Below are positions 2,477 through 54,935 of a stretch of DNA of 64,000 bases, in pieces. How positions within the stretch are numbered: position 1 is the first letter of the stretch; the number at the start of each line of letters is the position of its first letter. The position numbers were made by a program, and so were the translations under genes. This DNA is from a phage. Below the pieces are notes generated by a model. The model did no database searches and had not been told where the DNA came from. It saw only the letters and a program-made list of their open reading frames with translations. The DNA is taken from the NCBI GenBank assembly GCA_025812035.1, contig GCA_025812035.1_4719.1; one strand, given 5' to 3'.

Positions 2477-4063
2477 TTATTTTTTTCCTCTTAAATTTAC
2501 TACGTGTTCATTTAATCGAACAACTAATTGCACAAGCTGCTGACGGATATCTGCTGGACAAAGCATCAACCCTTTACGATCAGCTGGGACTTTCTCAAGA
2601 ATTTCCGGGCCTGCTGCTGAAACATCCCAGTCCCATTCACAAAACGCATCGGCTACCATGTTAATACCGACAACCGGTAAAGTTGTACGTTCATCTTCAT
2701 ACATGGCATGCGGATACAATTTATTGACGGTAATAATCTCCTGTGGTTTTAACTGGTGGATAATCTGATAAACATCGTCACGTTTAACCTGGATACCTAC
2801 GGTCAGCGCGGCCAGTTGAGGAAAGCCCCAATGGTCTAATAAGCAAGCTGCAATTGCTAACGCTTTTGCCTGATGCACGGCTTCAATCGGTGAAAGACTT
2901 CTCGCCGGAAGATGGCTATCAAGCAGCCATTGCGCCAGCGCTCGGCATCCGCGGTTGATTGGTTTTAACTCAACGGTGTCATCGTGTTTAGCGTACGTGT
3001 ACCCATCGTAACGTTTTGCGATACGTGCGTACATGTCCTCAACTTTACCGTAAGGTGCTGTTTCGTCGACGTCGTGAAGCACCCGTTCCATCTGGGTAAG
3101 ATACGCAATATCAAGGATGAGCACGCGCGGTGAACGTTTATCTTTCACCATCAGTGCATCAATCACACCTTGGCTATCTTCATCTTGCGCGTTCCCTCGT
3201 GGGGTTTTCTCGCGAATAGGTCCACTGAAACGTCGTTCCGTACAAAGGTTATTCACGTAGCTAAAGATCAGTGTCACTAGGTGTGTACAGCTCACCAACA
3301 CCCCATCTTTAACAACAGGCTGTACGGCTTGGTCCAAATCACGTACTGCGAGACGTCTGACGATGGCTTGTGAACGCAACCAACCTGGCACTTTCTCCGT
3401 TGACATGTAATCCACTGTCATCGACAACGTGATCTTTTTATCACCCGTCTGTGCACGGATATAGTCTTCCAGTCGGTCGTAAGCAGCGATGTCGTGAATG
3501 CGTGTTTTATACATCAACGACATAGCCACTTCTTCTTTACGTACCGTCCCGTACGTTTTCCCAGCATCGATCAGAAACTCTGCCCAAATCGGCACCATCA
3601 GACGAACGTAGATCGCTAACGCCGTTAACTCAACGTAATCATTTCGTAAATAGGTTTTCTCGGGTATATCGTCCTCGCCTAATGTCGTTTTCATGTCTGG
3701 TGGTAATTTTACCCAGCCTGGGGTATTACACAACGCCAGAATCTCTTCATACACAACCGGTTTGTAGATTTCACCGACAGCGCGGCTCAACTCCTCCATT
3801 TGTTGTTGTGGAGCAATGTAGTTATCCATCGCCTCACGTGCTTTAACGAACCCTTCAAAGATGTCGTCGATGCGACGTGGGTTCTTTTGTTCTATCCAAG
3901 CGAGATACTTGTTAATCTCCCGCATCTGATTGCTGGCCATATCCCCATCGATCTTGATGTAGCCCTGACCTGAAAATTCCACGGTACGTCCATCACGATG
4001 TTTGATGAGATAGTGATCCAGCTTTTCTTTGCCTTGCGTCGTAATGACCGGCACAATGTGCAT
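2477..4063 (-). CDS. hypothetical protein (528 aa)
   Basis: Long ORF; TATATTACC-type promoter box about 57 nt upstream at 4120-4128. Confidence 0.6.
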   Translation of the reverse strand: MHIVPVITTQGKEKLDHYLIKHRDGRTVEFSGQGYIKIDGDMASNQMREINKYLAWIEQKNPRRIDDIFEGFVKAREAMDNYIAPQQQMEELSRAVGEIYKPVVYEEILALCNTPGWVKLPPDMKTTLGEDDIPEKTYLRNDYVELTALAIYVRLMVPIWAEFLIDAGKTYGTVRKEEVAMSLMYKTRIHDIAAYDRLEDYIRAQTGDKKITLSMTVDYMSTEKVPGWLRSQAIVRRLAVRDLDQAVQPVVKDGVLVSCTHLVTLIFSYVNNLCTERRFSGPIREKTPRGNAQDEDSQGVIDALMVKDKRSPRVLILDIAYLTQMERVLHDVDETAPYGKVEDMYARIAKRYDGYTYAKHDDTVELKPINRGCRALAQWLLDSHLPARSLSPIEAVHQAKALAIAACLLDHWGFPQLAALTVGIQVKRDDVYQIIHQLKPQEIITVNKLYPHAMYEDERTTLPVVGINMVADAFCEWDWDVSAAGPEILEKVPADRKGLMLCPADIRQQLVQLVVRLNEHVVNLRGKK

Positions 4064-4112: not shown

Positions 4113-4142
4113 CCACAAAGGTAATATAAGCGTGAATAATTT
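4113..4142 (-). promoter_or_regulatory. TATATTACC-box promoter-like element (class E)
   Basis: Plus-strand GGTAATATAAGCGTGAATAATTTT; member of a 4-copy family, each 57-123 nt upstream of a minus-strand start. Confidence 0.5.
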
Positions 4143-4267
4143 TGGATTCCTGCTGAGTTATCGCTCAGCATGCAAGGCATCCCGCCGAAGCGAGACACCT
4201 TGCATTAACGGAAAATATTCGCGTTACCTTCTGAATTAATGATTCAGAATGCGATGCTAAAGCGTTA

Positions 4268-5056
4268 TTAGAACGCTAAGCCATCAAAGGCTATAGACGG
4301 ATCGTCGTCGTCATTTGCGCTTGGTGCATCCCAACGGGTATCAGGGGCTGCTGGAGCCGAACTTGATGCGTTAGAGTTACCGTTGTACTGGCCGTTACCA
4401 GCATTACGGTTACCACCGCCGTTGTTATTGTTACGATTATAGCTGTTGTTGCCATTACTTACACTACGGCTTTCACCGTCGAAATTGGTTGCAAGGATGC
4501 TCGGCAACACCGCACGATGAATACGTACGAATTCCAACGCACAAAGCGGAGAAACAATCCCGATCTGTAATGGTTGTCCGGATTCATCGACCAAAGAGTG
4601 GAAACGTGGTGGCTTGAATACGAACTGAATGTTCGGTTTTTGGTACGCTGTTACAGCAATATATACCGAACCATCATCATTCTTACCAACCCATGTTGTA
4701 CTTTCGGTAATCTGCTTTTTCTTACCAGGGTTATTGCGATCGTCGATAACCTTTTCGTTCTTCATCGCAAAGCGTTGACCCGGTTTACCCTTAGCAACTT
4801 GCTCAAGGATCGCAAGTAGGTTATAGAACGCATATGAACTCATGCGCGCCCAGATACTTTCGGCGCGACCCTGTTGGTCTTTACGACCTGTATAAACCGT
4901 GATACGCGGTTGATTTTTAGCAACGCTAATTTTCAATGAGGGGATTGAATTACCGCCCTCAACCTTTTCGTCCGCCCACAGTTTCCAGTTGTTGTCGTCG
5001 TAAGCCGTAGGAATAATGTTTCCTTGTGGTTTACTGCCCGAATTCCAATTGCTCAT
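4268..5056 (-). CDS. putative ssDNA-binding-like protein (Gly/Asn-rich linker plus acidic C-terminal tip)
   Basis: C-terminal third is low complexity (NRNNNNGGGNRNAGNGQYNGNSNASSSAPAAP) ending in acidic DDDDPSIAFDGLAF, resembling the disordered linker and acidic tip of SSB proteins; N-terminal OB fold not verifiable by eye. Confidence 0.3.
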   Translation of the reverse strand: MSNWNSGSKPQGNIIPTAYDDNNWKLWADEKVEGGNSIPSLKISVAKNQPRITVYTGRKDQQGRAESIWARMSSYAFYNLLAILEQVAKGKPGQRFAMKNEKVIDDRNNPGKKKQITESTTWVGKNDDGSVYIAVTAYQKPNIQFVFKPPRFHSLVDESGQPLQIGIVSPLCALEFVRIHRAVLPSILATNFDGESRSVSNGNNSYNRNNNNGGGNRNAGNGQYNGNSNASSSAPAAPDTRWDAPSANDDDDPSIAFDGLAF

Positions 5057-8840: not shown

Positions 8841-9305
8841 TTAAACCAAAGCCGCGATAACGTCATTAACGTTACGGCCTCGTAACTCTGCCGCCAAACG
8901 AATAATTTCATCCAGGGAACGGTTTGTACGAATCTTAGCTACTTTCCAATTTTCAGGATACTGTTCGAAGTTAAGTAACCAAGTCATTACCTTTGCTTGT
9001 TCCACACCGTTAAGTTTGATGGTTGTACGCGGATTGGCTTTGAACCACTTCTTGCTCAGCTGTGCCATACGGCGAACAGGATAAGCGTAAGCGCGGGTCC
9101 AGTCTTTGGACAGATTGTCGAGTAATTCACGGTAGCTGCTGTCGTAGTCTTTGTTGATACGACGTAATAACCAGTTGGCGGTCATTTGATAAAGTTTATC
9201 ATCTTCACGTAAACGCATACCTGCTACCGCTAAATAAATGATAAGACCTGCACCCATGATGAGAGACAGGATAAACAGAACTTGGTTTTCTTGTGCTAAA
9301 GTCAT
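8841..9305 (-). CDS. small membrane protein (single N-terminal transmembrane helix)
   Basis: Hydrophobic stretch VLFILSLIMGAGLIIYLAVAG near N-terminus; TATATTACC box upstream at 9398-9406; hairpin plus U-tract downstream at 8775-8830. Confidence 0.5.
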   Translation of the reverse strand: MTLAQENQVLFILSLIMGAGLIIYLAVAGMRLREDDKLYQMTANWLLRRINKDYDSSYRELLDNLSKDWTRAYAYPVRRMAQLSKKWFKANPRTTIKLNGVEQAKVMTWLLNFEQYPENWKVAKIRTNRSLDEIIRLAAELRGRNVNDVIAALV

Positions 9306-9390: not shown

Positions 9391-9420
9391 TCACCTAGGT
9401 AATATAGCCGTGAAAAATGT
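9391..9420 (-). promoter_or_regulatory. TATATTACC-box promoter-like element (class E)
   Basis: Plus-strand CCTAGGTAATATAGCCGTGAAAAATG upstream of 8841-9305. Confidence 0.5.
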
Positions 9421-10254: not shown

Positions 10255-10289
10255 ACGGCATAAACCCTCCCCGCCTTATGCAGGGAGGG
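10255..10289 (-). terminator. hairpin followed by UUUAUGCCGU (terminator with possible overlapping promoter box)
   Basis: CCCTCCC/GGGAGGG stem; coding-strand RNA reads hairpin then UUUAUGCCGUAUG, 37 nt before the next ATG. Confidence 0.5.
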
Positions 10290-11587: not shown

Positions 11588-13028
11588 CTTACGTGCACCG
11601 ACGTTTATTAACTCATGGTTATCCACTGAAATACGGCGTTAGGGAAATAATCCTTCTTGCCGCGTTTTGAGATTTGCAATGCCATATTACTCGGAGACAA
11701 TCTGTAATGCCATGCTGCTTCATCGATAGAACTAAACTTCTTTGTTTCGCCGTTATCAAAGATGATTTTCAACGCTAGTTTAGGTAAATCGTCTTCCGTT
11801 TCTACTAGTTCGAAAGAATCGATATTCTCTGCCAGCGTTAACGGATCAACAGGTAATATCAGCCAACCAGCACGCTGCAATCCTCCACGTAGACTAATTT
11901 GTTTATTCAACGCAGGGGTAGCCATGCCAACTAACTTAGCAGCCAGCTTGCGGTCTTTAATATAAAGACGATAATCTCCGGTATTATTAATAGCATACAC
12001 ACCAAAGTTATTGAACGATACCTTTCCAGCATCGGAACTAGTAAAGCCTACAAAGTCGTGGCTGTCGGTAGCCACGTCGTATTTAAATGCTAATGGCTTG
12101 TTTCGACTGCCGCTAAGATACTTCTTGGCTGTAGATACCGATATGTTGAGATATCGTCCAATAGCATTCAAACTTTCTAGTTCGATGATTTCTCCTGTCA
12201 ATATGTCCTTTAACCGAACATTACCCATCGGTATTGGTGGTTTACCGACATAACCCAATTCACGATATGCGTGTTTCAAGTTATCTGAATCAGTAGCCCA
12301 TTCCAAATTTTCTAGTCTGTTATCCCAACGCACTCCATTAAGATGATTAGGGACACGACGGATTATACCTGACGTCGGATCTGGGTTAAATGTTTCAAGG
12401 ACGATCTGATGATGGTATTTCACTTTGTTGTTCCTAGTGAAAGCGCGATAGTTGTTTTTGCCCGACTTGGGTGGTTCAGTACGAAACAACACTGTCAGAC
12501 TAGACACATCTACTATCGTACCGTTCTTATTAACAACGATACCATCAAAACCATTAACAGGACGATAATCAGACAAACAATCTTCAGAAATTGCCTGTCC
12601 AACTAAAGGTTCACTCAATTTGACCTCCTTTATAAAAGAAGTCGGTGCACGTAATTATCGACTATATCTTCATCCTCGTTGCGAGGAGTCTCCCGTTTTG
12701 GTCTGTGTTTAACAGAGCCTACTCTACTCGACATCGCGTCTTTCGATAGTCTGTGAGCACACATCTTAACGAACATTCGTGGATTCCTAAGCAGGTGAAC
12801 GTTCTTGTTGAGATGCTTCGCTGCGGATTATTCCCGTCCTACCTCTTTTACCATACCCAGTTCATTACGCTGGCCCTCATCTGTGTCACCACGATGAGTT
12901 GGTGTGTAGTCCGATTACAGAAACTTCCCGTCAATTAGAGAGTTTTAACTACGTTCCTGTTACCAGAAACCCGACTCCGACGATATCAATTAAATCAACG
13001 TAAATTATTGATTTAATTGAAGAAACTG
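11588..13028 (-). mobile_element. putative group I intron carrying the HNH homing endonuclease ORF, inserted in the beta-prime catalytic motif
   Basis: Coding-strand elements upstream of the endonuclease ORF: CAGACTATCGAAAG (plus 12741-12753, R-like) and AAGATATAGTCG (plus 12659-12670, S-like); candidate guide sequence GAGTCGG (plus 12971-12977) pairs with exon end CCGACTT with a terminal U-G; proposed 5' splice after GACTT and 3' splice after GTAAG; boundaries are inferred. Confidence 0.5.
11608..12618 (-). CDS. HNH homing endonuclease (TTG start)
   Basis: HNH motif KYHHQIVLETFNPDP...NHLNGVRWDNRLENLEWAT plus C-terminal helix-turn-helix-like DNA-binding repeats; no in-frame ATG, starts at TTG with AAGGAGG 5-6 nt upstream; sits inside the interrupted beta-prime gene. 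Confidence 0.8.
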   Translation of the reverse strand: MSEPLVGQAISEDCLSDYRPVNGFDGIVVNKNGTIVDVSSLTVLFRTEPPKSGKNNYRAFTRNNKVKYHHQIVLETFNPDPTSGIIRRVPNHLNGVRWDNRLENLEWATDSDNLKHAYRELGYVGKPPIPMGNVRLKDILTGEIIELESLNAIGRYLNISVSTAKKYLSGSRNKPLAFKYDVATDSHDFVGFTSSDAGKVSFNNFGVYAINNTGDYRLYIKDRKLAAKLVGMATPALNKQISLRGGLQRAGWLILPVDPLTLAENIDSFELVETEDDLPKLALKIIFDNGETKKFSSIDEAAWHYRLSPSNMALQISKRGKKDYFPNAVFQWITMS

Positions 13029-14284
13029 AAGTCGGCATTATAACCTTTCAAGATCATCACGCTTAACCCGATGGTGTTATCCTGCGGATCGCGTTTAACC
13101 TTGGTGATTTCAAGACATTGGTTACTGCTTCGGTCAAGTGATGGATTTCGAACAAAACCACACACAATCCCATCAAACGGTGTATCAGCAATAAGCTCAT
13201 CGTGCAGCTCGCTCATCATCGGATGATAATTACGGACATGTTCCGCAACGAACGCACGTGCTGCTCTTGGTGAATAACCACGATGGAATAACTTGGATTG
13301 GATATGTTCTTTATTGGTTAATGTAAATGGCGCGTATGGGAAATGCAGATGATAATAACGATGGTTCGCTGTTATCGAACTGATTACGGTACGCGTGGTG
13401 AATGGATGTAATGTACCTAATATGTTTTTACGTGTGATACCTTTCTTCTTACCGATGAACTCATCGAAAATCGCCGAGTGGTACTGCAGCAGCTTCAGTT
13501 GTACTTTCGCCATCCAGTTTTCTTTCTTTCTGGCGCTCAAAGGTGTTGTTGGGTGATAGATACTATTCAATGTACCGATAGCATCGATCGCACCTTCCAT
13601 TTTGCTATCTGCATAACGACCGGTTGGTGTATTCTCGATAACGAACATCATGGCGGCAGGAAAACTGATATACTGGCTGAAGAACTTATCGCGATGAATG
13701 CGGGTGAATTCTCGTAGCGTATCAACTTTCTCCGTGTTCTTCGGTCCGCGTAACGTAGGTCCTTTATACAAGATCTCCATGATGCGATCGAAGTTCTGTA
13801 TAAAGCTATTTATCCCACGTCGTATCCCGAATACATCGAATTGCTGCTCCAGATAGTTCTTGAGTTCGATGGGTCGTTTTACGTTTGGACGGTAACTGGC
13901 ATCAATGAGCCACGTCATCGTTTCAAAGCTTTTGATATTCAACTCGCTTGCCAGCACGAGATGGACCAACGGGTTAATAAACGCATCAATTCCTTCAGGA
14001 ACACGCGCCCAAACCGTCGAACGAATCTCTTGTTCTGCTGGGTAGGTTACAACCGTTTTACAGTTTGGACACACCGTGCCAAGCAGCTCACCACGATTGT
14101 AGAAACCACATCCACATTGTGGTGTGATATCCAACGTATCGCTGGAGTAAACACGGGTGATAAAACTGTTTAATTTCTTCTTCTCTTCGACGACTTTTGT
14201 GTCGTAATCATTCAACAAAATAGGCGTAAAAGGAAGTTCTGCGAGCTGTCTATCGAAACTCACGATATCGAGCATGATGGCCAT
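13013..14284 (-). CDS. multisubunit RNA polymerase beta-prime N-terminal portion (exon 1), ORF runs into intron
   Basis: Zinc ribbon CGCGFYNRGELLGTVCPNCKTVV (compare E. coli [23 protein letters not shown]); GKKKGITRKNILGTLHPFTTRTVISS (compare [23 protein letters not shown]); frame ends GYNADF-SFFN-stop, i.e. inside NADFDGD. Confidence 0.75.
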   Translation of the reverse strand: MAIMLDIVSFDRQLAELPFTPILLNDYDTKVVEEKKKLNSFITRVYSSDTLDITPQCGCGFYNRGELLGTVCPNCKTVVTYPAEQEIRSTVWARVPEGIDAFINPLVHLVLASELNIKSFETMTWLIDASYRPNVKRPIELKNYLEQQFDVFGIRRGINSFIQNFDRIMEILYKGPTLRGPKNTEKVDTLREFTRIHRDKFFSQYISFPAAMMFVIENTPTGRYADSKMEGAIDAIGTLNSIYHPTTPLSARKKENWMAKVQLKLLQYHSAIFDEFIGKKKGITRKNILGTLHPFTTRTVISSITANHRYYHLHFPYAPFTLTNKEHIQSKLFHRGYSPRAARAFVAEHVRNYHPMMSELHDELIADTPFDGIVCGFVRNPSLDRSSNQCLEITKVKRDPQDNTIGLSVMILKGYNADFSFFN

Positions 14285-14326
14285 GGGGTATCTCCTACAA
14301 ATGAAAAAGAACGTTAGGACGTATAA

Positions 14327-14350
14327 GGGAGGGAGGTTGCCCTCCCTCCC
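14327..14350 (-). terminator. terminator-like hairpin after the 631-aa gene
   Basis: GGGAGGGAGG-TTGC-CCTCCCTCCC perfect 10-bp stem. Confidence 0.5.
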
Positions 14351-14376
14351 GTCAGATTACATCGAACGTTCTTCCA

Positions 14377-16272
14377 TTAGAACAGGTTGAATGCCCCACC
14401 CATGTTGTTACCACCAACGTTCGGACGATCGCTGCGTGCGTAGATGCTACCGGAGATATTACCCAGACCACGAGCACGTGCTGCCATGTTACCACGAACA
14501 GCGGTACCCGCCAGATGCTGGATATTCTCAGGACGGATGGTGAAGCCAGCTTCAGCAGCTGCTTCAATCAACGCAGCAAGCGCTTGCGGTTCGAAGTCGT
14601 AACGCATTGCCCAACCGGTTTGTTCCCAGCTACCAGACAGAACACGATCGATGATTTCGTGACGAGCGACAACACGCTGAGACATCGACATATCGGTACG
14701 GTCGAAGCTGTCTTCCCATGCTTCTACGGTATCCGGGTTAGTGATGTTCATCATGTACAGATCGTCCATATCGCGAATATCGTGACGGTTACCATCCTGG
14801 TGGTTGTAGTGACCCAGCGGGATACGGTTACCGGTAGCGTAGACCAGCGGTTGACCGTATTGATATTTCTTGCTGAAGCAGCCCAGGGTAGTATCATCGA
14901 AGGCACGGAAGAGTGCTTTGTAACCTTCAGAGACTTCCCGAACATCAGCCTCAACATTACCCGTATAGATCTTCTCAGCCGCCGGGATCATACGCAACAG
15001 CCAGCTGTATTCGCCTTCTTCCGGCACGTCGATAGAAATCAGCAGGGACGGATACAGTACCTGTTGCAGGAACTTGTAAATCTGCTCATTGGTTTGAGTA
15101 GACAGATCCAGCGGTGCGGTAACTTCCGGATCCAGCACCATCGCCAGAGCACCCGGGTTATGCGGACCGATACCACGAGCAGCGTTGCTGATTAAAGACT
15201 GCGCCCATGCCATGCCGCTGTTCAGCGTAGCAATGGTACCAATCAGACCCAATACAAAAGTATTCGGTGTGAATGCGTCCAGCTCCAGCGGGTAAGCGCT
15301 GGTCATCACGTAACGCGGCTGGTATTGTACAGTCGGCGGTACCGGATAACCGTTAACCAGAACAGGACCTTGGTTGAAGGTCGGGTTCTGCGGGCTGTAG
15401 GTCAGGTCGATATAGCCGGTAGTTGCGACCAGACGCTGCTGGCTATCGTAATCGCTCATCGCTTGACGGATGCGGTTAGAGATAGTTACAGTGATGTCGG
15501 AACGCACTGGGTTACCAACGATATCGCTGTCCTGCATACCGCTGGTGTTATACTGAACGCTGCTGATCGGCTGATCGCTTGCCATCATGCCCAGGTTGAA
15601 CTGCGGCAGGCCCAGTTTATCACCGAGACGGATTTCGATTGCGGTTTGGATTGCGTTATCTGCAGCAGACAGCAGGGTGGTTGCCAGGTGTGCAGATTCA
15701 GCGGTGATTTCATTGGTCACCACAGCCAGACCAGCGATACGAACAGTACCATTAGCCTTGCCACCAATAGCCGCATACATTGCCGCCATGACTTCGTTGA
15801 TGAACGTGCCGTTCAGGTTATCAACCCAGGTACGCGGTACCAGAATGTTACCATGCGGACCTTGTTCTTCACGACGCGGCAGCGGAGCCAAACCGGCAAC
15901 CAGCGGAAGCACATAACCGAAGAAGTGGTTATGATCACCAACTTTCGCACCACTCATAACCACCAGGGTCGGATACGGTACACTGTACTGACCAGGATCG
16001 ACAGTCACCATGATGAAGTCGTCTTTAAAGCCTTTATCTTCCAGTTCTTTTTCCATCAGACGACGGAGGTTCAGTACTTGCTCAGAACCGGTGTTACGGC
16101 TAATACGACGACTCAGTGTACGGTTGATCGTACGCATCGTATGAGTCACTTTAGGCTGGCCAGCAAAGTCTGCAGCGGTTTCCAGCGCTTCATCTGCACG
16201 TTGTGCGGTGCGGGTTTCAGCTGCACGAATTTCTACATTATCGTTACCGTTTTTACGTACGTCTAAGCCCAT
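14377..16272 (-). CDS. candidate phage-nucleus shell protein (chimallin-like), otherwise abundant early protein
   Basis: 631-aa monocistronic unit between TATATTACC box (16345-16353) and terminator hairpin (14327-14350), adjacent to the zinc-ribbon beta-prime gene as chimallin is in phiKZ; length is close to described chimallins as I recall them; no sequence-level confirmation. Confidence 0.4.
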   Translation of the reverse strand: MGLDVRKNGNDNVEIRAAETRTAQRADEALETAADFAGQPKVTHTMRTINRTLSRRISRNTGSEQVLNLRRLMEKELEDKGFKDDFIMVTVDPGQYSVPYPTLVVMSGAKVGDHNHFFGYVLPLVAGLAPLPRREEQGPHGNILVPRTWVDNLNGTFINEVMAAMYAAIGGKANGTVRIAGLAVVTNEITAESAHLATTLLSAADNAIQTAIEIRLGDKLGLPQFNLGMMASDQPISSVQYNTSGMQDSDIVGNPVRSDITVTISNRIRQAMSDYDSQQRLVATTGYIDLTYSPQNPTFNQGPVLVNGYPVPPTVQYQPRYVMTSAYPLELDAFTPNTFVLGLIGTIATLNSGMAWAQSLISNAARGIGPHNPGALAMVLDPEVTAPLDLSTQTNEQIYKFLQQVLYPSLLISIDVPEEGEYSWLLRMIPAAEKIYTGNVEADVREVSEGYKALFRAFDDTTLGCFSKKYQYGQPLVYATGNRIPLGHYNHQDGNRHDIRDMDDLYMMNITNPDTVEAWEDSFDRTDMSMSQRVVARHEIIDRVLSGSWEQTGWAMRYDFEPQALAALIEAAAEAGFTIRPENIQHLAGTAVRGNMAARARGLGNISGSIYARSDRPNVGGNNMGGAFNLF

Positions 16273-16337: not shown

Positions 16338-16367
16338 CACCTAGGTAATATAACCCTGAAATTTTTT
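16338..16367 (-). promoter_or_regulatory. TATATTACC-box promoter-like element (class E)
   Basis: Plus-strand CCTAGGTAATATAACCCTGAAATTTTTTT, 73 nt upstream of the 631-aa gene. Confidence 0.5.
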
Positions 16368-16526
16368 TCAATATTGGTGTAACCGTATTGAACGATATAA
16401 ACCCCTAGGTGAATGCTGCCGAGAAGCAACATTCTTTCTACATATAATCAGGATATGTCTGTAAACTTTTACTTCTCTTATTGAGAGTAACATCATATCC
16501 GCTTACTACCTTCTTACGGAGTTCGT

Positions 16527-19900: not shown

Positions 19901-19942
19901 ACGGCATAAAAAGAACCGATCCAGCCGAAGCCAGATCGGTTT
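19901..19942 (-). terminator. hairpin followed by UUUUUAUGCCGU
   Basis: ACCGATC/GATCGGT stem then CUUUUUAUGCCGU on the coding strand, about 62 nt before ATG of 17686-19839. Confidence 0.5.
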
Positions 19943-23949: not shown

Positions 23950-23980
23950 ACGGCATAAAAGCCTGCCCCGAAGGACAGGC
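23950..23980 (-). terminator. hairpin followed by UUUUAUGCCGU
   Basis: GCCTG/CAGGC stem then UUUUAUGCCGUG, 18 nt before ATG at 23937. Confidence 0.5.
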
Positions 23981-30967: not shown

Positions 30968-31072
30968 CGCTTTGCCTTCCGCGAGTGTAATCAGGAAGGT
31001 AATGTAGGTTTATTTTAATCTCCATTTCGCGATGATATGACAGTCTTTATTACGTTTACCATCTGAGGGAGC

Positions 31073-40466: not shown

Positions 40467-40476
40467 ACGGCATATA
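40467..40476 (-). promoter_or_regulatory. TATATGCCGT box upstream of 39503-40450 (no hairpin)
   Basis: Coding-strand TATATGCCGT 16 nt before the ATG; variant of the UAUGCCGU core. Confidence 0.35.
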
Positions 40477-40593: not shown

Positions 40594-42666
40594 ATGAGGC
40601 TTAAGAATAGCACGCCTCGCGCGATTTTTACGGGCTTTAAAGAGGGTCTTACCACGGATCCGGTTACAGCCCCAGAGATCACGCCCATTCACCTCCCGTA
40701 TGTTTTCATTCAGGGTGGTCGTGGTAAAGAGGACACCTTGCTGTTAACAGGGGACGCCCTGTCTACAGTCTACGGTGAAGATATGCTGAACTACCGCAGT
40801 AAGTACGCTTCTCCGGCAACATTGATTGCTCGTCAAGCTGCTTCTACGGGTAGCGCAATCTTCACAAAACGTTTGGTTGCACCGGATGCGACAGCTGCAC
40901 GTATTCGTATCGGTGTTGAAATCGTTGCCGATAAACTGGTCGTTTACCAGCGTAACGTTGACGGGTCTTTCAAAAAGGACACCGCCGGTAACAAAATCCC
41001 CGACGGCGATAAAACCGTTGATGGGTTGAAACTGCGTTGGGTTGTTAACCACGACAAAGATGCCGAAACACCGAATGTTTTCGGTAAGGATGAAGTGGTT
41101 ATTGGCCAACTGACGGCAACTGACGGTACCCAGAGTAACTACTATCCTATTCTGGATGGGTTAGTGAGCTGGCGCGGTGCTGACGGGGATAACATCGGCG
41201 TGCGTTTGGAAGCACCGACCGCGCTGAGCAGTAACCCTACCCGTACCGATATTATCGAACGCATCGGTGCTTTCCTGTACCGCATTCAGTTCGTGGAACG
41301 CAAGTCTTCACGTACTGCGCCGACAGTCATTCGTACAATCAGCGGTATGGAACAAGAAACCTTCGCACTGCAGGAAGGTGTTATCCAACCTGATGATGAA
41401 ACCGATCTGTCCTTCGGTAAAGTGGTCGTTGACGCCTACGAGTATAATGAGACGGGTAACACCCCGATCTTTGCTCCGATGGATCAGATGCATCTTTATC
41501 AGAAGAACATCGACGAAATCGTCAAGAAGCTGTACGAATCTGAAAGCAAAGTTAACAACGATCTGTTAACCGACGTTGAATTCGTCGAAGGACAGATGAA
41601 CATCTTCACCGGTGTTGATTACAACGGTATTCCGTATCAAACCATCGAAGTTCTCGATGCGGATCAGGGCGGCGCTATCTTCGATGGTACCAGCACCTTT
41701 TACGCAATCGATGGTAGTGATGGCGACGTAAGCTGGGATACCTTCGATGCGTTAGCGAAGCAGCAGTTCGAATCGTTCGGCAACATGGGCGAAGATCTGG
41801 AAGACATGGCTTTCTATCCGTTCTCCATCGTGTATGACATTGGTTACAAAGTCGACACGAAGAAAGCGATGGCGAATGTCTTGTCTCTGCGTCCTGACGT
41901 CATGATTATTGCATCAACCCACACCTGGAAGGGCGTGGAGCTGAACGTCGACGAAGAAAGCTCCATGGGTGCAATGCTGCGTAACTACTACCGTCTGCAT
42001 CCAGAAAGCGTGCTTTACAATACCCCAGCCTGTCGTGCTGCTGTGTTTATGCAATATGGCGAAAGCATCGAAGCGCCAAGCCTGGGTAAAGTTCCGCTGA
42101 CGCTGGAAGTTGCTAATAAACTTGCAACGTACATGGGTGCTTCAGATGGTGTTATCCGCGGTACCCGCATCGATAACAACCCTGGTAACGTTGTCACAAC
42201 GATGCGTAAAATCAACAAGACGTATCGTAACGCAACGGTCCGCGATCGTGATTGGGAAAACGGCTTGAACTATGTTCAGACCTATAACCGTAATTCCAAC
42301 TTCTTCCCGGCTTGGGGCACGATTTACAATAACGACCGTTCGGTATGGCGTTCGTTGATCAACGTGATCATCGGTTGCGATCTGACTCGTGTCTGCTATC
42401 GTCTCTGGGCAGAAACCACCGGTACCACAGGAATGGACGAGTCGCTGTTCCTGAAACTGATGGGCGAACGCTTCCTGGAATACACCACGGGTCGTTACAA
42501 CGACCATGTGACTGTTAAGGGACGTTTCTACCTGGATAAAGAAGACGGTTATAATGGCTTCAGCTATCATGGTGATATCAGCCTGATCGGTGATCCGGGT
42601 ATGACCGTGGGTACGTTTACCATCACCGGGCTGCGTCGTAACACCGAAGCAGCAGAAGCGGCGTAA
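40594..42666 (+). CDS. putative tail sheath protein
   Basis: 690-aa ORF immediately followed by a 296-aa ORF and a strong bidirectional terminator; size and arrangement match the phiKZ-type sheath/tube pair (about 695 aa and about 32 kDa, from memory); GGAGAG before ATG. Confidence 0.45.
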   Translation: MRLKNSTPRAIFTGFKEGLTTDPVTAPEITPIHLPYVFIQGGRGKEDTLLLTGDALSTVYGEDMLNYRSKYASPATLIARQAASTGSAIFTKRLVAPDATAARIRIGVEIVADKLVVYQRNVDGSFKKDTAGNKIPDGDKTVDGLKLRWVVNHDKDAETPNVFGKDEVVIGQLTATDGTQSNYYPILDGLVSWRGADGDNIGVRLEAPTALSSNPTRTDIIERIGAFLYRIQFVERKSSRTAPTVIRTISGMEQETFALQEGVIQPDDETDLSFGKVVVDAYEYNETGNTPIFAPMDQMHLYQKNIDEIVKKLYESESKVNNDLLTDVEFVEGQMNIFTGVDYNGIPYQTIEVLDADQGGAIFDGTSTFYAIDGSDGDVSWDTFDALAKQQFESFGNMGEDLEDMAFYPFSIVYDIGYKVDTKKAMANVLSLRPDVMIIASTHTWKGVELNVDEESSMGAMLRNYYRLHPESVLYNTPACRAAVFMQYGESIEAPSLGKVPLTLEVANKLATYMGASDGVIRGTRIDNNPGNVVTTMRKINKTYRNATVRDRDWENGLNYVQTYNRNSNFFPAWGTIYNNDRSVWRSLINVIIGCDLTRVCYRLWAETTGTTGMDESLFLKLMGERFLEYTTGRYNDHVTVKGRFYLDKEDGYNGFSYHGDISLIGDPGMTVGTFTITGLRRNTEAAEAA

Positions 42667-42681
42667 TGAGAGGAGTCCATA

Positions 42682-43572
42682 ATGCGTCCTGATAATACCC
42701 TACTCGGTGAACAGGGTGTTGGTGCTCTTAGCAACGCGGCTATGGTCGATATTCGTGCGGGTGCCCAAAACGGGTACATCAGCAATATCGGTACGTACGT
42801 TGCTAACGCCAACTACATTCCGAACCAAATGTTCTGTCTCCTGCTGGAGGCACCACGTGGTTTCAACTATCTACCTAACCCGGATGTACAGATTGGTTAT
42901 CTGAAGGCGTTGGTAGAAGAGGTTGCGCATTCGATTACCGGTCTGCAACGCGGATTGGAAGTTGAATTCGTTAGCGTCCCGGTTTCTGGTTCCGGTGAAA
43001 TCCAGGAAGAAGTCTCTGACGTTAAACGTCCTCGCTCTAACCCGACTTTCGGGATCTATGAGAAAGAAGGTCGTTCCGTTAGCTACTTCCTGGAACAATG
43101 GATCACGTATCTGTTGATGGACCCGGATGCTAAATATCCGATGCTGTCGTCTATCGTATCCACCGGTGGTCCGACCGACCTGCTGGCGGATTATCGTAGC
43201 GCAACAATGCTGTTCGTTGAACCAGACCGTCAACACAAGAAAGTGGTTAACGCCTGGTTGTGTACGAACATGATGCCTCACGGTACCGGCGACTGGACAT
43301 CACGTCGTAACAAGAACGATGCACCAAACGTGGTAGAATTGAGCATTCAGTTCACTGCGCTAACACAGACCAACTACGGCGTGCGTGCTTTTGCGCAGCG
43401 TCTGTTGGACAAGATGAATCTGCTTAAAGTAAACCCGGATTTCCGTCCGGCTTATCTGAGCGACATCGATCCCGCTGTGGCAGCGCAGAAGGTTGGCTAC
43501 ACCTTCGACTTTGATAACAGCGATACCTTCGAGGTACCGAACGCTTATCAAAACGTAACACCTCGCGTGTAA
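42682..43572 (+). CDS. putative tail tube protein
   Basis: 296-aa ORF 15 nt downstream of the putative sheath gene with AGGAG before ATG, followed by hairpin plus U-tract at 43596-43633. Confidence 0.4.
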   Translation: MRPDNTLLGEQGVGALSNAAMVDIRAGAQNGYISNIGTYVANANYIPNQMFCLLLEAPRGFNYLPNPDVQIGYLKALVEEVAHSITGLQRGLEVEFVSVPVSGSGEIQEEVSDVKRPRSNPTFGIYEKEGRSVSYFLEQWITYLLMDPDAKYPMLSSIVSTGGPTDLLADYRSATMLFVEPDRQHKKVVNAWLCTNMMPHGTGDWTSRRNKNDAPNVVELSIQFTALTQTNYGVRAFAQRLLDKMNLLKVNPDFRPAYLSDIDPAVAAQKVGYTFDFDNSDTFEVPNAYQNVTPRV

Positions 43573-43595: not shown

Positions 43596-43633
43596 TCCCT
43601 CCTTCCCTAGCCATCAAGGCCGGGGAAGGAGGG
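43596..43633. terminator. bidirectional intrinsic terminator
   Basis: CCCTCCTTCCC ... GGGAAGGAGGG stem flanked by A10 on one side and T-rich on the other, between convergent tube gene and 43646-44185. Confidence 0.6.
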
Positions 43634-43645
43634 TTTATAGTTTAT

Positions 43646-44185
43646 TTACTGTTTGTTCTTAGCTTCACGGATGAAAATGACGTCGGGATATTCTTGGGAT
43701 TCAATGAATTCAGGATTACGATAACGACGAATATGACGCATCGTCGTACATGCAAGTTTATAAAGATGTTCCTCCTCACGTTGTGTTAGTAACATCAATT
43801 GTGTATCTGGAATCACGAACGGGAGTCTTTCATTCACGTATTCTTGAAGGTTGTCGAGATCATCGTGATGAATACCCTCTGAGAGCTTATATAACGCTTC
43901 CAGCAATTCTAATCCACCGAATTGATAACTTCCTATTGTTGTCTTAAACAATGCGCCAGAACGCGTGGTGGATGCTCTATCGGCAACATCGTATTGTTCC
44001 AACATATATCCGTAGACCATGCTGCGTCTATCCAACGTTTCCGTAACGAGATTACGCCACCGTTCCAGTCTTTTGAGCGCCTTGTCGATAGAGTAAACGA
44101 TCATGTCATACTCATCCAACTCTTCCGCGATACCCAATAGCTCGGTGTTGTTAGGTTTTGCTGCGCCGATAAGAAAAACACTCAT
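43646..44185 (-). CDS. hypothetical protein
   Basis: ORF in track. Confidence 0.5.
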   Translation of the reverse strand: MSVFLIGAAKPNNTELLGIAEELDEYDMIVYSIDKALKRLERWRNLVTETLDRRSMVYGYMLEQYDVADRASTTRSGALFKTTIGSYQFGGLELLEALYKLSEGIHHDDLDNLQEYVNERLPFVIPDTQLMLLTQREEEHLYKLACTTMRHIRRYRNPEFIESQEYPDVIFIREAKNKQ

Positions 44186-44598
44186 TACTCAAACTCCTTA
44201 TTCCAAAACTCGATTAACGAATCGAGCTGTTCCTTACTGGTTATCTCACCTCCTCTAACAAAATGAAATCGTTCTTGAATCGCGATCTTTTCGAGGATAT
44301 CGGTAAGCAAATGACGGTGACAGAAATTTCCTGCAGGACAATAACACCCTAACACCACAACCGGATGAGAGAATAAAGCCAGCCATTCCGGTGTGTGATC
44401 AACAAAGCTTTTACGCATAAGCGCGTAATAGCCTGTGGTATATTCATCCTCGGTTAACGTTTTTGATTTGATTCCTGTAACAAGTTCCCATGATGGTGCG
44501 AAGAGCGGGTTACCTGTTTTCACCGTCGTGTCCAGTAGGAACGCTCGTGTGCCTGAAAGCCAACGATGTTTGGCTAATTGAAGGGTGTATAAAAACAC
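44185..44598 (-). CDS. hypothetical protein
   Basis: ORF in track; Cys/His cluster GCYCPAGNFCHRH. Confidence 0.5.
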   Translation of the reverse strand: MFLYTLQLAKHRWLSGTRAFLLDTTVKTGNPLFAPSWELVTGIKSKTLTEDEYTTGYYALMRKSFVDHTPEWLALFSHPVVVLGCYCPAGNFCHRHLLTDILEKIAIQERFHFVRGGEITSKEQLDSLIEFWNKEFE

Positions 44599-44702: not shown

Positions 44703-45182
44703 TCAGTCTTTCAGCAGCTCAGCTGCATACGCACTGATATTGTCGCGGATATGCTTAACCTGAGTTGTTGGGAAAGATTTCTTATACGCGGTGGTCAGAC
44801 GTCCGTAAACCTGTTTCTTCTCGTTAGAGCCGAAACCAACTTCAGCGCTACGTTGAATTGTTGCAGACACAACGTCTTTACCCAGCGGCAGTGTAACAGA
44901 AACAACGTCAACCTGCTTGTTATCCGCCATGAACTGCGCACCAACGCGACCAACTGCCAGGCCGTGAGCCAGACCGATATCAGTGGTCAGCTTCTGCGCT
45001 TTTTCCAGGATTTCTTTTTCTTCCGGTGTTACCAGAGTACCCAGGAAATCACTGCCTAACTTCTGGCTACCGGATTCGTCCAGTTTGATACCAGCTGCGA
45101 TTTTATCAGAAAGCGCCTGAACTTCCGGACGTACGTTAGAAGTGGTTTCAGTTGCTACGGTGGTTTCTACAGCTTCAGACAT
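44703..45182 (-). CDS. hypothetical protein with strong upstream TATATTACC box
   Basis: ORF in track; promoter-like box at 45305-45313. Confidence 0.55.
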   Translation of the reverse strand: MSEAVETTVATETTSNVRPEVQALSDKIAAGIKLDESGSQKLGSDFLGTLVTPEEKEILEKAQKLTTDIGLAHGLAVGRVGAQFMADNKQVDVVSVTLPLGKDVVSATIQRSAEVGFGSNEKKQVYGRLTTAYKKSFPTTQVKHIRDNISAYAAELLKD

Positions 45183-45297
45183 GTTAATACTCCAATTAGT
45201 TTTTTCGATCGATCAAAAGGATAAAATCAGAAGATTCTTTCTTCATAGGGAAAACACAAGTCGGTTAAGGTTTACTTCTCAAACTCCTTGCGTTCTA

Positions 45298-45327
45298 TCA
45301 GTTAGGTAATATAGACCTCAACTTTTT
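45298..45327 (-). promoter_or_regulatory. TATATTACC-box promoter-like element (class E)
   Basis: Plus-strand GTTAGGTAATATAGACCTCAACTTTTTT upstream of 44703-45182. Confidence 0.5.
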
Positions 45328-46115
45328 TCCAATAATGCCGCAACGTTCCGCGCGAAGCGAATAACTTTGTAATTGCGGGTCTGTTTGACATCTTCTCCAT
45401 CGCTGTCATCTTCGGACGGATCATCCCACATGAAGTCTTGTTCGTCCGCTTTCTGTAAGTAGCGGTATAACTGCACCATGCTGCGTGCGGTTGGAGAGAT
45501 AGCGCGAAGTTCGTCTAAATCTTCATCGGTAAGCAGAACGCACGGTGAACGCAGTGGTTCCATTGCCGTATTACACAGTAGACGAATAAGCAGATCGACA
45601 CACGGAATAACGGAACTTGGTGAGGCGATTTCTGGGTGTAGTGTATAACCCCAATACACGCTGTTAAAATAAGTCAATACCGCAGGTAATGAAGGATGCT
45701 CCATCACACGACCAATTTGCTGTCTTACAATAGATGCACGATCGTTCAGTACATCGAGAGTAATTTGTTGCGGTTCCATAACAGCGAGTGACATACCGTA
45801 CGCATCGGCTACGCCAAGGATTTCATGAAGAGCCGAACGCTCTTCTTCTGCGGATGTTGTCCCGATCGCTTTACGTCCAGCAAGTTCGATTAGCATCGGT
45901 GAAACAGTTTCTTTAACCTCGTTTAAAGAAGCCTGGTAAGCATGTTTGTGAAGGTACAGTGTCCACGCTAATGCGCGCACAGCTGCATGAAGCAGATCGA
46001 CATAAGACTGTTCTTGATAGCATGGCCCGTACACGCTCACCGCAAGCTTGGTGGCTTTCTCGGAAGCTTGCATAATAGCATCAGGTGATTTAGGCATATC
46101 GCGTTCTTCTTGCAT
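45318..46115 (-). CDS. hypothetical protein
   Basis: ORF in track; upstream leader carries ATACGGCGTAT box and hairpin-UUUUUAUGCCGU module. Confidence 0.55.
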   Translation of the reverse strand: MQEERDMPKSPDAIMQASEKATKLAVSVYGPCYQEQSYVDLLHAAVRALAWTLYLHKHAYQASLNEVKETVSPMLIELAGRKAIGTTSAEEERSALHEILGVADAYGMSLAVMEPQQITLDVLNDRASIVRQQIGRVMEHPSLPAVLTYFNSVYWGYTLHPEIASPSSVIPCVDLLIRLLCNTAMEPLRSPCVLLTDEDLDELRAISPTARSMVQLYRYLQKADEQDFMWDDPSEDDSDGEDVKQTRNYKVIRFARNVAALLEKS

Positions 46116-46203: not shown

Positions 46204-46245
46204 ACGGCATAAAAAGTACCTCCTTACCCACATGGGTAAGGAGGT
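46204..46245 (-). terminator. hairpin followed by UUUUUAUGCCGU
   Basis: 13-bp perfect stem ACCTCCTTACCCA/TGGGTAAGGAGGT then ACUUUUUAUGCCGU. Confidence 0.55.
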
Positions 46246-46396: not shown

Positions 46397-47206
46397 TTAC
46401 CACTGATTAAAGCTGCCCGCTTTAACGATGTCACAACGCAGATGGTTACATAACTGATCCAGGAAGACAACCGGACTGTCACCGGACAACATGGCCAGTG
46501 CGTGCTGACCACCAGAACGAACAACGAGATCATCAACCATTGGCGCAGTAATCGGGAGATCGTACGCGTCCATGATTGCTTTGGCTTCCTGTTCTACGTC
46601 TTTCTGAAACCCTTCCATCGTCGGAGAGTCATATTTGGTTGCAAACTCGATCCCAGGCAAGTTAACGTAATCGTAAGTCATCACGCGGGTCATAACGCGA
46701 CGGCGCTCACGTTGCCAGATTTGGGGATCGGTTAACGCACGAACTGAAAAACACACGTTCACTAGCGGTGTTTCAAAATCCTTACGTAACGCATCACCGT
46801 ACGGACCACAAGGAATAACGTCCCCCATCACCATCACGACAGGACGACCACGACGATCACGTCCAGCTTCTTCCAACCAAATCTTAGAAAAGCAATGACT
46901 CACTTTGGTTTCTTCGATTCGTAATGCGCGCTGTAAAAAGCTGGTGGCATCCTGACCGATCTCTGGTTTAGGGTGACCGTATTCACCTTTCAGCGAACGA
47001 TTGCGTGCGTTTGTTTGCAGTAAGCTGTTTTCCAGGAACAACGGTTTCGAACGCTCAAGTTCGTAATATTCTTCGGTATTGTTAAAACAGTTAAACCCAC
47101 CGATAACACAGGTGTAGGCACCGTCAGCGTTAGGACGGATAATACCTTTTTTATTCACACCAAGATAACTGGTGCAAACAAGATTACTAATTGGTGGTTG
47201 CATCAT
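46397..47206 (-). CDS. hypothetical protein
   Basis: ORF in track. Confidence 0.5.
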   Translation of the reverse strand: MMQPPISNLVCTSYLGVNKKGIIRPNADGAYTCVIGGFNCFNNTEEYYELERSKPLFLENSLLQTNARNRSLKGEYGHPKPEIGQDATSFLQRALRIEETKVSHCFSKIWLEEAGRDRRGRPVVMVMGDVIPCGPYGDALRKDFETPLVNVCFSVRALTDPQIWQRERRRVMTRVMTYDYVNLPGIEFATKYDSPTMEGFQKDVEQEAKAIMDAYDLPITAPMVDDLVVRSGGQHALAMLSGDSPVVFLDQLCNHLRCDIVKAGSFNQW

Positions 47207-48016: not shown

Positions 48017-48727
48017 TCACCCCCTCAGAATCGCTTCTGTTTCGCTGATCGTGTCCGCGGGATAAACCAAACTACTATCGATTGCATTGTTCACGTAACC
48101 ACCCATCAGGTTGGTGATGGTGTTTGTGCCGCTATCGATAATGTTTCGTAATCCGATGTCGATGGCTTTTAACGTGCTGCGTTCTTCATCTGAAAGCAGA
48201 CGCCACGCCCGACGGCGATCGTTGGGGTCACGCGTGGTGATAGAAGCCAGAACAGAATAGATACTGCTATCCGCATTCAATTTAACACCGGCCAATTTCG
48301 CCGATGTGTAGAGCAGCTGATATTTTTCTTTTTCAGTATACCACCATGGCACTTTACCGAGTGTATAGATCTCGTTATACATCAGCCATGGGAAAGAGTT
48401 TCGCATCACGACATCGGTCGACACCAACACCGTGTCACCAGGAAGAAATACGAACTCGTAAAACGGCTGACCATCCATGGTAATTTCACGGATGTCAGAC
48501 GGGTCGATATGGAGCTGGGTCAATGCGTGGCTGACACCATACTGACCATCAGGAAGAATAATCGGGCAGCACGCACAAACCCGGTTCTCACTCCCAATGA
48601 TAGATAAACCCAATCCCTCGTAACGGACGGGCGTCAGAATCGAACACCCGCCACGAGTAACAACAGATTTATCTTCTTGTATGTCCCAGTCCGCAAGCAC
48701 CGCAGCACCGTTGCGGACAAGCGCCAT
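48017..48727 (-). CDS. hypothetical protein
   Basis: ORF in track; abuts neighbours. Confidence 0.5.
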   Translation of the reverse strand: MALVRNGAAVLADWDIQEDKSVVTRGGCSILTPVRYEGLGLSIIGSENRVCACCPIILPDGQYGVSHALTQLHIDPSDIREITMDGQPFYEFVFLPGDTVLVSTDVVMRNSFPWLMYNEIYTLGKVPWWYTEKEKYQLLYTSAKLAGVKLNADSSIYSVLASITTRDPNDRRRAWRLLSDEERSTLKAIDIGLRNIIDSGTNTITNLMGGYVNNAIDSSLVYPADTISETEAILRG

Positions 48728-50251
48728 TTACACCTCGCTAATCTGGATAACGTAAAGCTGCTGGGCCACGTAATCGGTGGTCAGATGCATTGTTGCGATG
48801 GTTGCTGCTTCGAATACCGTAAGTTCAGGACGTTCACGCATAATCAAATCGATTTCATCGATGAGACGGTTAACACCTTGAGCGTCTTCATGATGCATCG
48901 TTTTCACGTAGAGCGTACGGAAATACTGCTGGAAATTAGCTACGTCGGTATCGGTAAGGTTAGCAACTTCACCACGCACAATTTCCATGACCTTCTTACG
49001 GGCATCTTCGTCGAGGTCGACCGTAATCAGATCAGCGAACACACCCTGCAATGCCAGCGCGTATGCACGTAAGCGGTTTGCGGCCTGCTGACTGGCTTTC
49101 ATGTTGATGTAGTTACGGTAATGCTGCATGAAGCCTGCACCGTTAGCCAGCAGTTCATCTTTACTGATGAGTTCACGCTCTAACAGAACGGCTGCGGTTA
49201 ATGCTTCCGGTGAACCACCTTCTTGCAGATAACCCATGTAAACATCCGCGTTAACGAAAATCGTCATCGTTGACGCATCTTCAGCACGTTGAATCTGAGA
49301 AGCTGACGGCGCAGAAAGAATCAGCTCGCCACGCTCCATACGCAAGATACGATCACGACCGACGCGCGCCATCCCGTTGATCGCCGCAGCGCGAGCTTGT
49401 TGCATTTTAGCGCGGTAGTTTTCAAGCATCATGTCGTTGCCGTCCTGGATATCTTCCAGCAGGTTAACGGCCCACATATAGCAGAGGAATGCAGGAGTTG
49501 CCGCAGCGCGCGAACCATGGAATGCAACGTTATCGCTATCTGGGTACGTAATCAGATAAGCGGTGATGTTCGAAGAAGGGGCGGAACCACGGAAGAAAAG
49601 GTTGTAAATGTCTTCCAGTGCCTGATCGCTCATCCCTTCCGTTGCTTGCTGTACAAAACGATCCAGGTTTTCATTACCGGTATACAGCAACGTACGCAGC
49701 TTGTCACCAGTGATAAATGCAAGCTTTTCGGTTGGGGTGAAATCGTTATTAATCGAAATCAAGCCATTGAGATCATAATCGCTAACTAATGCCTGATATT
49801 CTTCGGAGTTATAAAACTCAGGATAGTAACTCAGGCTTACCGTCGGGATCAGTTTCGGTGCCAGGATGATCGAATCGATACGTTTTTCCAGTTCCGGGTA
49901 CAGCGCACGGCATTTCGGCAGGATGGTATTACGCGCCAACTCTTTGGCATACACCACTTTTTCCACCACGTCTTGAACTGCGGTCTGTAAAACTTCATCG
50001 TGGATATAAACCTCGCGTTCGCTGGCAGGTGCTACAGCGCCATCTTCGGTTTCATCAAGTGTTTCAGCAACAACCATACGTTCAGCACTGAGCTGCACCA
50101 ACGCATCAGCGTCTTCTGGTGGTTGGTTCCAATGCATGGTTTCACAAACTGCGGCTAACGGAGTGCCTGGAATCGCAGCAACGATTTGATTACGTTTGAT
50201 AAACCCTTCAACAATAGGCTCAACGGCATAAACAGTTTTATTGGTGATCAT
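48728..50251 (-). CDS. hypothetical protein (507 aa)
   Basis: ORF in track. Confidence 0.55.
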   Translation of the reverse strand: MITNKTVYAVEPIVEGFIKRNQIVAAIPGTPLAAVCETMHWNQPPEDADALVQLSAERMVVAETLDETEDGAVAPASEREVYIHDEVLQTAVQDVVEKVVYAKELARNTILPKCRALYPELEKRIDSIILAPKLIPTVSLSYYPEFYNSEEYQALVSDYDLNGLISINNDFTPTEKLAFITGDKLRTLLYTGNENLDRFVQQATEGMSDQALEDIYNLFFRGSAPSSNITAYLITYPDSDNVAFHGSRAAATPAFLCYMWAVNLLEDIQDGNDMMLENYRAKMQQARAAAINGMARVGRDRILRMERGELILSAPSASQIQRAEDASTMTIFVNADVYMGYLQEGGSPEALTAAVLLERELISKDELLANGAGFMQHYRNYINMKASQQAANRLRAYALALQGVFADLITVDLDEDARKKVMEIVRGEVANLTDTDVANFQQYFRTLYVKTMHHEDAQGVNRLIDEIDLIMRERPELTVFEAATIATMHLTTDYVAQQLYVIQISEV

Positions 50252-54932: not shown

Positions 54933-54935
54933 GGG

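Follow-up and report, generated by a model that had tools for sequence, protein, structure and literature searches.

Four copies of a TATATTACC box, probably joined by a fifth variant, are very likely the early promoters of a Goslar-like phage of the Chimalliviridae and would be read by its virion RNA polymerase (vRNAP). The boxes lie in the window, i.e. the whole 64 kb stretch of DNA analysed here. We infer the reading polymerase, the start site and the timing from phiKZ and from AR9. The promoter type is already known from phiKZ, and in this sense the finding is correct but ordinary and confirms expectation. In the literature searched we found no catalogue of early promoters for Goslar-type phages; our results provide a sequence-level map of predicted early transcription units in Goslar-type jumbo phages of E. 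coli.

The boxes and the phage that carries them

Comparison of a 14-kb slice of the window with the phage collection gave Escherichia phage vB_EcoM_Goslar as the sole match (94.7% identity), and the Goslar annotation transfers to the window gene by gene. Together these identify the window, by its sequence, as a second Goslar-type nucleus-forming jumbo phage of the Chimalliviridae. The genes mapped in this way include chimallin, a non-virion RNAP fragment, DNA polymerase, PhuZ tubulin, terminase, tail sheath, prohead protease and large vRNAP subunits. The coding fraction of the window is 93.2%, and an Rfam scan of the whole window at the gathering threshold gave zero matches.

An early promoter of the phiKZ type is served by a multisubunit RNA polymerase packaged in the virion. 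Three of the five vRNAP subunit genes are present in the window (48017-56621, minus strand), as indicated by synteny and about 95% DNA identity with Goslar. The Goslar subunit list, which includes gp205, gp207 and gp210, comes from virion mass spectrometry (bioRxiv 10.64898/2026.04.21.720040). The homologs are:

48017-48727, minus strand, gp210 homolog
50586-54932, minus strand, gp207 homolog
54936-56621, minus strand, gp205 homolog

At 55106-55117, inside the last of these genes, the window is without a 2,054-bp insertion of Goslar, for which the annotation gives a group I intron and the gp206 gene (homolog of phiKZ ORF179), and the gp205-type gene is therefore a single unbroken 561-codon ORF here. 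The Goslar record has another group I intron at the spot of the non-virion RNAP beta' gene that is equivalent to window 12619-13012; an HNH endonuclease gene (11608-12618) adjoins this segment.

The sequence TATATTACC is found exactly four times in the 64 kb window, as compared to 0.41 copies expected, and four copies were reached in none of 100 shuffles. All copies are exact matches on the minus strand (4120-4128, 9398-9406, 16344-16352 and 45305-45313), as the original prediction had it. All four 8-nt cores are intergenic, for which the probability by chance is about 2e-5, or about 1e-6 when orientation is counted. Counted from the final base of each box, the A of the following minus-strand ATG is 57, 93, 72 and 123 nt away, in agreement with the range of 57-123 nt that had been proposed. 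In each case the core is exactly TATATTAC, the core of the phiKZ type, and each box is co-oriented with the gene behind it, among them the early genes for chimallin (chmA) and the gp68 homolog. With one mismatch allowed, the 8-mer by itself is no more frequent in the window than expected by chance (55 found, 55.5 expected); the signal is therefore the exact core plus its flanks.

When the elements are aligned in register over 38 nt, the order is an upstream element made of an A-run and then a T-run, TATATTAC, six bases and TG. Pairwise identity is 23-30 of 38 positions and there are 21 invariant columns (...A.T..AA.A...TT.A.G..TATATTACCT...TG), so that the earlier description of near-identical elements of 25-30 nt is overstated. 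Moreover, the third interval given there (16338-16367) is shifted by one base relative to the other three, and the CTAG noted 3' of the box is present in only two of the four copies. A G at core+7 is found in all four window sites and in 12 of 12 Goslar sites, as read from the sequence alone. The predicted promoter elements, with the fifth candidate described below, are as follows.

P1: 4114-4151, minus strand, early-promoter element with the upstream A/T element at 4129-4151, core TATATTAC at 4121-4128 and N6; predicted start G 4114, leader 51 nt to the ATG at 4063; Goslar counterpart of the start 160777
P2: 9392-9429, minus strand, early-promoter element with core at 9399-9406; predicted start G 9392, leader 87 nt to the ATG at 9305; 5-nt overlap of its 5' end with the stop of the gene upstream; Goslar counterpart 166055
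P3: 16338-16375, minus strand, early-promoter element (chmA promoter) with core at 16345-16352; predicted start G 16338, leader 66 nt; Goslar counterpart 172964
P4: 45299-45336, minus strand, early-promoter element with core at 45306-45313; predicted start G 45299, leader 117 nt to the ATG at 45182; its upstream half, 19 nt long, lies over the 3' end of the gene before it; Goslar counterpart 201930
Fifth candidate: 30992-31029, minus strand, weaker member with core variant TACATTAC at 30999-31006, then C-N5-TGA; predicted start G 30992

The genes behind P1 to P4 are:

2477-4063, minus strand, first gene behind P1, homolog of phiKZ gp68 (BLASTP 24% identity, E 2e-34, full length)
889-2475, homolog of phiKZ gp69 following the gp68 homolog (E 3e-15)
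8841-9305, minus strand, first gene behind P2, 154 aa, Goslar gp182 homolog
14377-16272, minus strand, first gene behind P3, chimallin ChmA (Pfam PF25677 at 1.1e-27, PHROG 4795)
13013-14284, non-virion RNAP beta' fragment gene following chmA
44703-45182, minus strand, first gene behind P4, Goslar gp214 homolog (159 aa, 99.4% identical, PHROG 9746)
44185-44598, second gene of the P4 unit, with a DUF488-N3a domain (PF22751)
43646-44185, third gene of the P4 unit

ChmA is the shell protein of the phage nucleus, and the protein encoded in the window is 96.2% identical to that of Goslar. The gp182 homolog, for which the family search gave no match, heads a co-oriented gene run that ends in the chmC homolog (4268-5056); by eye, its hydrophobic N-terminal segment looks like a transmembrane helix. 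PHROG matches for the gp68 and gp69 homologs are 3209 and 3141, respectively. In phiKZ, gp68 is the fifth, promoter-recognition subunit of the non-virion RNA polymerase (PMC13282480) and gp69 has been named Imp1 (PMC12676376).

A scan of the whole window with a position weight matrix (PWM), which had been suggested as a check, recovers all four boxes and adds the fifth, weaker member; no comparable motif density is seen inside coding regions, where equal density had been named as a sign against the promoter reading. With the core-only PWM the four main sites score 22.8-31.6 bits and the fifth box, TACATTACC at 30998-31006 on the minus strand, scores 20.2 bits, as compared to 8.4 bits for the next match. 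With the full PWM the fifth site reaches 12.0 bits against a null maximum of 11.6. It is intergenic, co-oriented with a gene whose ATG is at 30940, has no canonical upstream A/T element, and is kept in Goslar at 187639.

The Goslar genome was assembled from seven pieces for a genome-wide motif scan. It contains ten copies of TATATTAC, all on the minus strand: eight are intergenic, lie before minus-strand genes and carry the extended motif, while the two intragenic copies are both without it. A matrix derived from Goslar finds 12 sites of 46-57 bits in the Goslar genome, where the shuffled-genome maximum is 11.6 bits, plus two marginal ones; with the same matrix P2 gets the top score, 58.2 bits. 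All 12 strong sites are on the minus strand and have the form core-N5-TG. Ten strong sites were placed on the annotation and all lie upstream of co-oriented genes; the site at 49732 is inside the annotated gp047 ORF and 86705 is placed approximately. Four Goslar sites (15067, 43266, 49732 and 86705) have TACATTAC in place of TATATTAC, with the same flanks and TG(A), and may form a sub-class that differs in strength or timing. All four are outside the region covered by the window, and one of them adjoins the major head protein gene. Besides the counterparts of P1 to P4, the predicted starts in Goslar are 2553, 113783, 142786 and 226681 for the other strong sites, 15053, 43252, 49718 and 86691 for the TACATTAC sites, and a position near 187625 for the weak site. 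There are also two flavours of the upstream element, a CCAACATTTTTCACGG-type and a TGAAAAAAATTTCAGG-type, both of which occur in phiKZ too; they could possibly mark distinct early sub-classes.

Agreement with the phiKZ early promoter and conservation across genera

The 'consensus early promoter' of phiKZ, tatattaaaaaaaatttaagatgTATATTACaaatgtG, is given in the supplement of a 2025 transposon study (PMC12676376). It ends in ...TATATTAC-N6-G and its core is identical to that of the window sites. Over 38 positions P1 to P4 match this consensus at 21, 22, 29 and 26, respectively. The flanks taken separately agree at 13-21 of 30 positions and include the T-rich/A-rich upstream element. Previously, the early motif of phiKZ has been described as an extended -10 box with a T-rich element upstream of -19, present in 32 promoters, and Wicke et al. 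mapped a primary transcription start site with this motif at PHIKZ054 (orf54, chmA) (PMC8244752). The phiKZ site before orf54 (chimallin) reads aatgaaaaaaatttgagattTATATTACtaaattGaat and the chimallin site of the window attgaaaaaaatttcagggtTATATTACctaggtGaat.

The first 100 kb of phiKZ has 14 TATATTAC copies, of which ten lie between genes on the gene strand and show the same architecture. From these ten phiKZ sites a phiKZ-only PWM was built that contains no window sites. Among about 128,000 positions it places the window sites at ranks 1-4, with 35.0 bits for P3, 21.2 for P4, 17.0 for P2 and 5.7 for P1; the next best position has -0.8. Shuffled maxima for this PWM have a mean of 4.5 and a maximum of 14.4 bits. 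The score of P1 thus falls inside the range of shuffled maxima; nonetheless, the position of P1 is conserved. When the core is masked, flank scores of the four sites are still in the top 8e-6 to 5e-3 of window positions, and the flank-only score of P3 is the highest in the whole window. The published consensus and the ranking together bear out the original prediction that the box is the core of phiKZ early promoters.

A different reader of the boxes may be considered, namely the non-virion RNA polymerase, with the boxes as middle or late promoters, or both phage polymerases. In its favour, the first product behind P4 is a virion-associated protein of high abundance, and phiKZ orf54 has a middle promoter in addition to the early one (PMC8244752). 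However, the late promoter of phiKZ is TATG with G at +1 and all four bases required (PMC7598289), and its middle promoter has a TACT motif near -22 plus an A-rich repeat (PMC7598289, PMC8244752). The predicted start regions in the window are GTGG, GTGA, GTGA and CTGA, none of them TATG, and the TACT motif is absent too. Moreover, two of the boxes head genes for subunits of the non-virion enzyme itself, which the same enzyme could not make at the outset. It is therefore very unlikely that the non-virion polymerase reads these boxes, and we keep to the vRNAP as their reader.

Between the window and Goslar the elements differ by 3 substitutions in 152 nt as compared to 5.3% overall (P = 0.04), which is a weak test as the genomes are too similar (about 5% divergence); the comparison was therefore extended across genera. 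A search of IMG/VR with ChmA gave only three genomes, with 96-98% identity, all with an identical chmA promoter. At the level of gene order, the phiKZ site at 57984, flanked by gp67 and gp68, is the positional ortholog of P1; the gene upstream of P1 in the window (4268-5056) encodes the homolog of phiKZ gp67, which is reported as ChmC. P3 is the positional ortholog of the phiKZ chmA (orf54) site. A box before the gp68 homolog is found in phiKZ, Erwinia phage RAY (core TACATTAT), Klebsiella phage Eowyn, Serratia phage Moabite and Pseudomonas phage BRkr, in an arrangement of hairpin, A/T element, TATATTAC, N6 and G; the order of hairpin and then box is seen in phiKZ, Eowyn, Moabite and BRkr. Before chmA, TATATTAC-N6-G is present in phiKZ, Eowyn, RAY, Psa21 and SA002, and one-base variants of the core are seen in PhiPA3 (TATATCAC) and RP12 (CATATTAC). 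The boxes at the chmA and chmC-gp68 junctions thus recur in four to six other genera.

The proteins of the compared genera are only 22-33% identical to those of the window and the box is kept; the promoter is therefore far better conserved than the genes it serves. The core, the spacing and the upstream element of the virion-polymerase promoter are conserved across these genera, and one matrix could therefore annotate early regulons family-wide. The predicted chmA leader is 66 nt both in the window and Goslar (16338-16375) and in phiKZ (45545-45582), at about 25% protein identity; this may be a coincidence, and the leader lengths of other genera look different.

Positional conservation also bears on the idea that the boxes are a dispersed repeat of non-promoter nature, either the site of a regulatory or DNA-organising protein or a scar of recombination or duplication. 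A stretch of about 33 nt is almost the same in some copies (for example P2 of the window and the Goslar sites 2567 and 166069), and copying could account for it. Against this, the similarity ends at promoter size (about 40 nt) and the flanks are unrelated, the orientation is always that of the downstream gene with a leader of 51-117 nt, the same gene junctions are occupied in genera with 22-33% identical proteins, and the motif coincides in phiKZ with mapped early transcription start sites (PMC8244752). We regard a non-promoter repeat as highly improbable. Host E. coli sigma-70 promoters with TATATT as the -10 hexamer are extremely improbable: TATATT is one base off TATAAT and the elements do precede genes, but a consensus scan finds no -35/-10 pair at 16-18 nt spacing in any of the four boxes, conservation reaches past the -10 hexamer (AC, N5, TG and the upstream A/T runs), the conserved positions match a phage-polymerase promoter of a Pseudomonas phage, and transcription of phiKZ-type phages is independent of the host polymerase (PMC10914365, PMC13282480).

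Predicted transcription units and the P4 cassette

With the boxes taken as vRNAP promoters, the enzyme would bind the extended -10-like core TATATTAC at about -14 to -7, and the A-run/T-run element at about -37 to -15 would assist binding. Transcription would start at the conserved G six bases past the core, i.e. at minus-strand positions 4114, 9392, 16338 and 45299. Transcription from P3 would cover chmA followed by the non-virion RNAP beta' gene, that from P2 the run of small genes that ends in chmC, and P1, located just after a pair of hairpins, would re-initiate for the gp68 and gp69 (Imp1) homologs. For P4 the predicted unit is a self-contained cassette of three genes that ends at a bidirectional terminator. 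Early boxes ahead of chimallin and of non-virion polymerase subunits fit the logic of the life cycle. RNA-seq of Goslar has shown transcripts of chmA at 5 min, which start in a region at most 91 nt from the ATG, and 175 genes switched on at this time (PMC10541120). As there are about 12 strong sites in Goslar, 175 active genes would need either very long transcripts or further promoters.

Hairpins and a second intergenic motif accompany these units:

4152-4205, minus strand, tandem hairpins at the end of the chmC unit, directly upstream of P1 (-38.3 kcal/mol, z -7.0)
14306-14374, minus strand, hairpin between chmA and the non-virion RNAP beta' gene, then a T-rich run (-40 kcal/mol, z -7.5)
43597-43633, strong hairpin with T-rich tails on both strands (-32.6 kcal/mol, z -4.4)
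10255-10262, 19901-19908, 23950-23957 and 46204-46211, minus strand, and also 40467-40474, TATGCCGT motif

The hairpins at 4152-4205 and P1 together form a predicted terminator-then-promoter junction. The hairpin at 14306-14374 looks like an attenuator or terminator within the P3 unit; a separate start region for the beta' gene of Goslar has been mentioned (PMC10541120). The hairpin at 43597-43633 separates the final gene of the P4 unit (three genes in about 1.7 kb) from the tail-tube gene that converges on it.

The second intergenic motif consists of a GC-rich hairpin, a T-run and then TATGCCGT. In Goslar, TTTATGCCGT is found in eight copies as compared to 0.5 expected, seven of them directly after a hairpin, and at least three of those hairpins are annotated as terminators in the Goslar record. 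The layout of a hairpin followed by TATGCC is also seen before the gp68 homolog in phiKZ, Eowyn and BRkr. Since TATGCCGT contains TATG, it was considered as a promoter of the non-virion RNAP, and this was rejected as it nearly always follows a GC-rich hairpin and a T-run. A conserved terminator motif has been reported for phiKZ and 201phi2-1, and the TATGCCGT motif is probably the same one. Given TATG, the core of phiKZ late promoters, it may also act as a junction of terminator and promoter.

P4 has the prohead protease gene (46397-47206) on one side and the tail tube/sheath genes (40594-43572) on the other. The original prediction placed this box inside the structural block, which holds, and implied an early-expressed gene among virion genes, which has to be put differently, as the product is a homolog of gp214. 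In Goslar, gp214 is reported to be present in more than 200 copies per virion and to be one of the three most abundant unexplained virion-associated proteins (bioRxiv 10.64898/2026.04.21.720040). With 99.4% identity to gp214, the product in the window is therefore a virion-associated protein with an early-type promoter. An abundant virion product behind P4 is not what purely early expression would predict. There is no hairpin between the preceding gene and P4, and P4 overlaps the end of that gene; we can speculate that later read-through could add to early expression. The 117-nt leader of P4 holds a 16-codon upstream ORF, MKKESSDFILLIDRKN (45196-45246, minus strand), without an obvious ribosome-binding site.

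In Goslar the box at 142800 belongs to the gp159-gp158 operon, with gp158 as the second gene, and the box at 201944 has gp214 as the first gene. Both gp158 and gp214, which are among the three unexplained virion-associated proteins that are most abundant in Goslar, thus lie behind TATATTAC early-type boxes. One tentative explanation, which we consider rather unlikely, is that some packaged or injected cargo proteins are made from the first minutes of infection via promoters of the vRNAP type. If this is true, such cargo might act first in or around the early infection vesicle or the nascent nucleus and be packaged later, and the early regulon would be tied to the function of the injected protein cargo.

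Early-type boxes adjoin the tail sheath block in phiKZ too (23585 and 29398). The P4 cassette was compared with the genes behind the first of these, the phiKZ early-type cassette after the tail sheath genes (gp31); there is no homology, the likeness is positional only, and an equivalence of the two was rejected. The only distant homolog of gp214 is in Xanthomonas phage RTH11, whose chmA upstream region has a different core. On the practical side, one matrix for the family could supply portable early promoters for engineering its phages.

Comparison with known early-promoter systems

An AT-rich motif is present near -10 of early operons in every jumbo phage that encodes RNA polymerases, and wherever tested it is the early promoter of the injected virion RNAP (PMC7598289). 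In phiKZ, phiR1-37 and AR9 early transcription starts 6 nt past the element (PMC5312081). For 201phi2-1 an early motif that mirrors that of phiKZ has been mapped by ONT-cappable-seq (PMC11512511). By description, its early promoters have an AT-rich motif about 10 bp before the start site with conserved -10, -20 and -30 positions, and they are seen before hypothetical early genes as well as near the genes for non-virion RNAP subunits (PMC11512511).

Bacillus phage AR9 injects a multisubunit virion RNAP, and its early promoter is AAATATATATTAT-N6-G+1 (PMC5312081). AR9 falls outside the chimalliviruses, and its DNA contains uracil (PMC13282480, PMC7598289). The AR9 promoter and the window boxes have in common TATATTA, the six-base spacer and the G start, which is predicted for the window. 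They differ in the last base of the core, which is T in AR9 and C in the window, and upstream, where AR9 has an extended AT run, whereas the A-run/T-run of the window is set apart from the core. Coliphage N4 follows the same strategy, as its virion brings along a polymerase for a few early promoters of its own. N4 uses a single-subunit enzyme that recognises DNA hairpins, and there is no resemblance to the TATATTAC box in either sequence or structure.

In comparison with phiKZ, the number of sites is different (28-32 there and about 12 strong ones per Goslar genome), and so are the host (Pseudomonas for phiKZ and E. coli here) and the GC content (37% in the first 50 kb of phiKZ and about 46% in the window). 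The window sites favour C after the core (TATATTACC), just upstream of the core they have TCACGG or CAGGG where phiKZ has AAACAG or GAGAT, and the TACATTAC sub-variant is found in Goslar-type genomes. The two systems are alike in the 8-nt core TATATTAC, the A-run/T-run element, the G six bases after the core, the intergenic and co-oriented placement, and the presence of sites at matching positions before chmA and the gp68 homolog.
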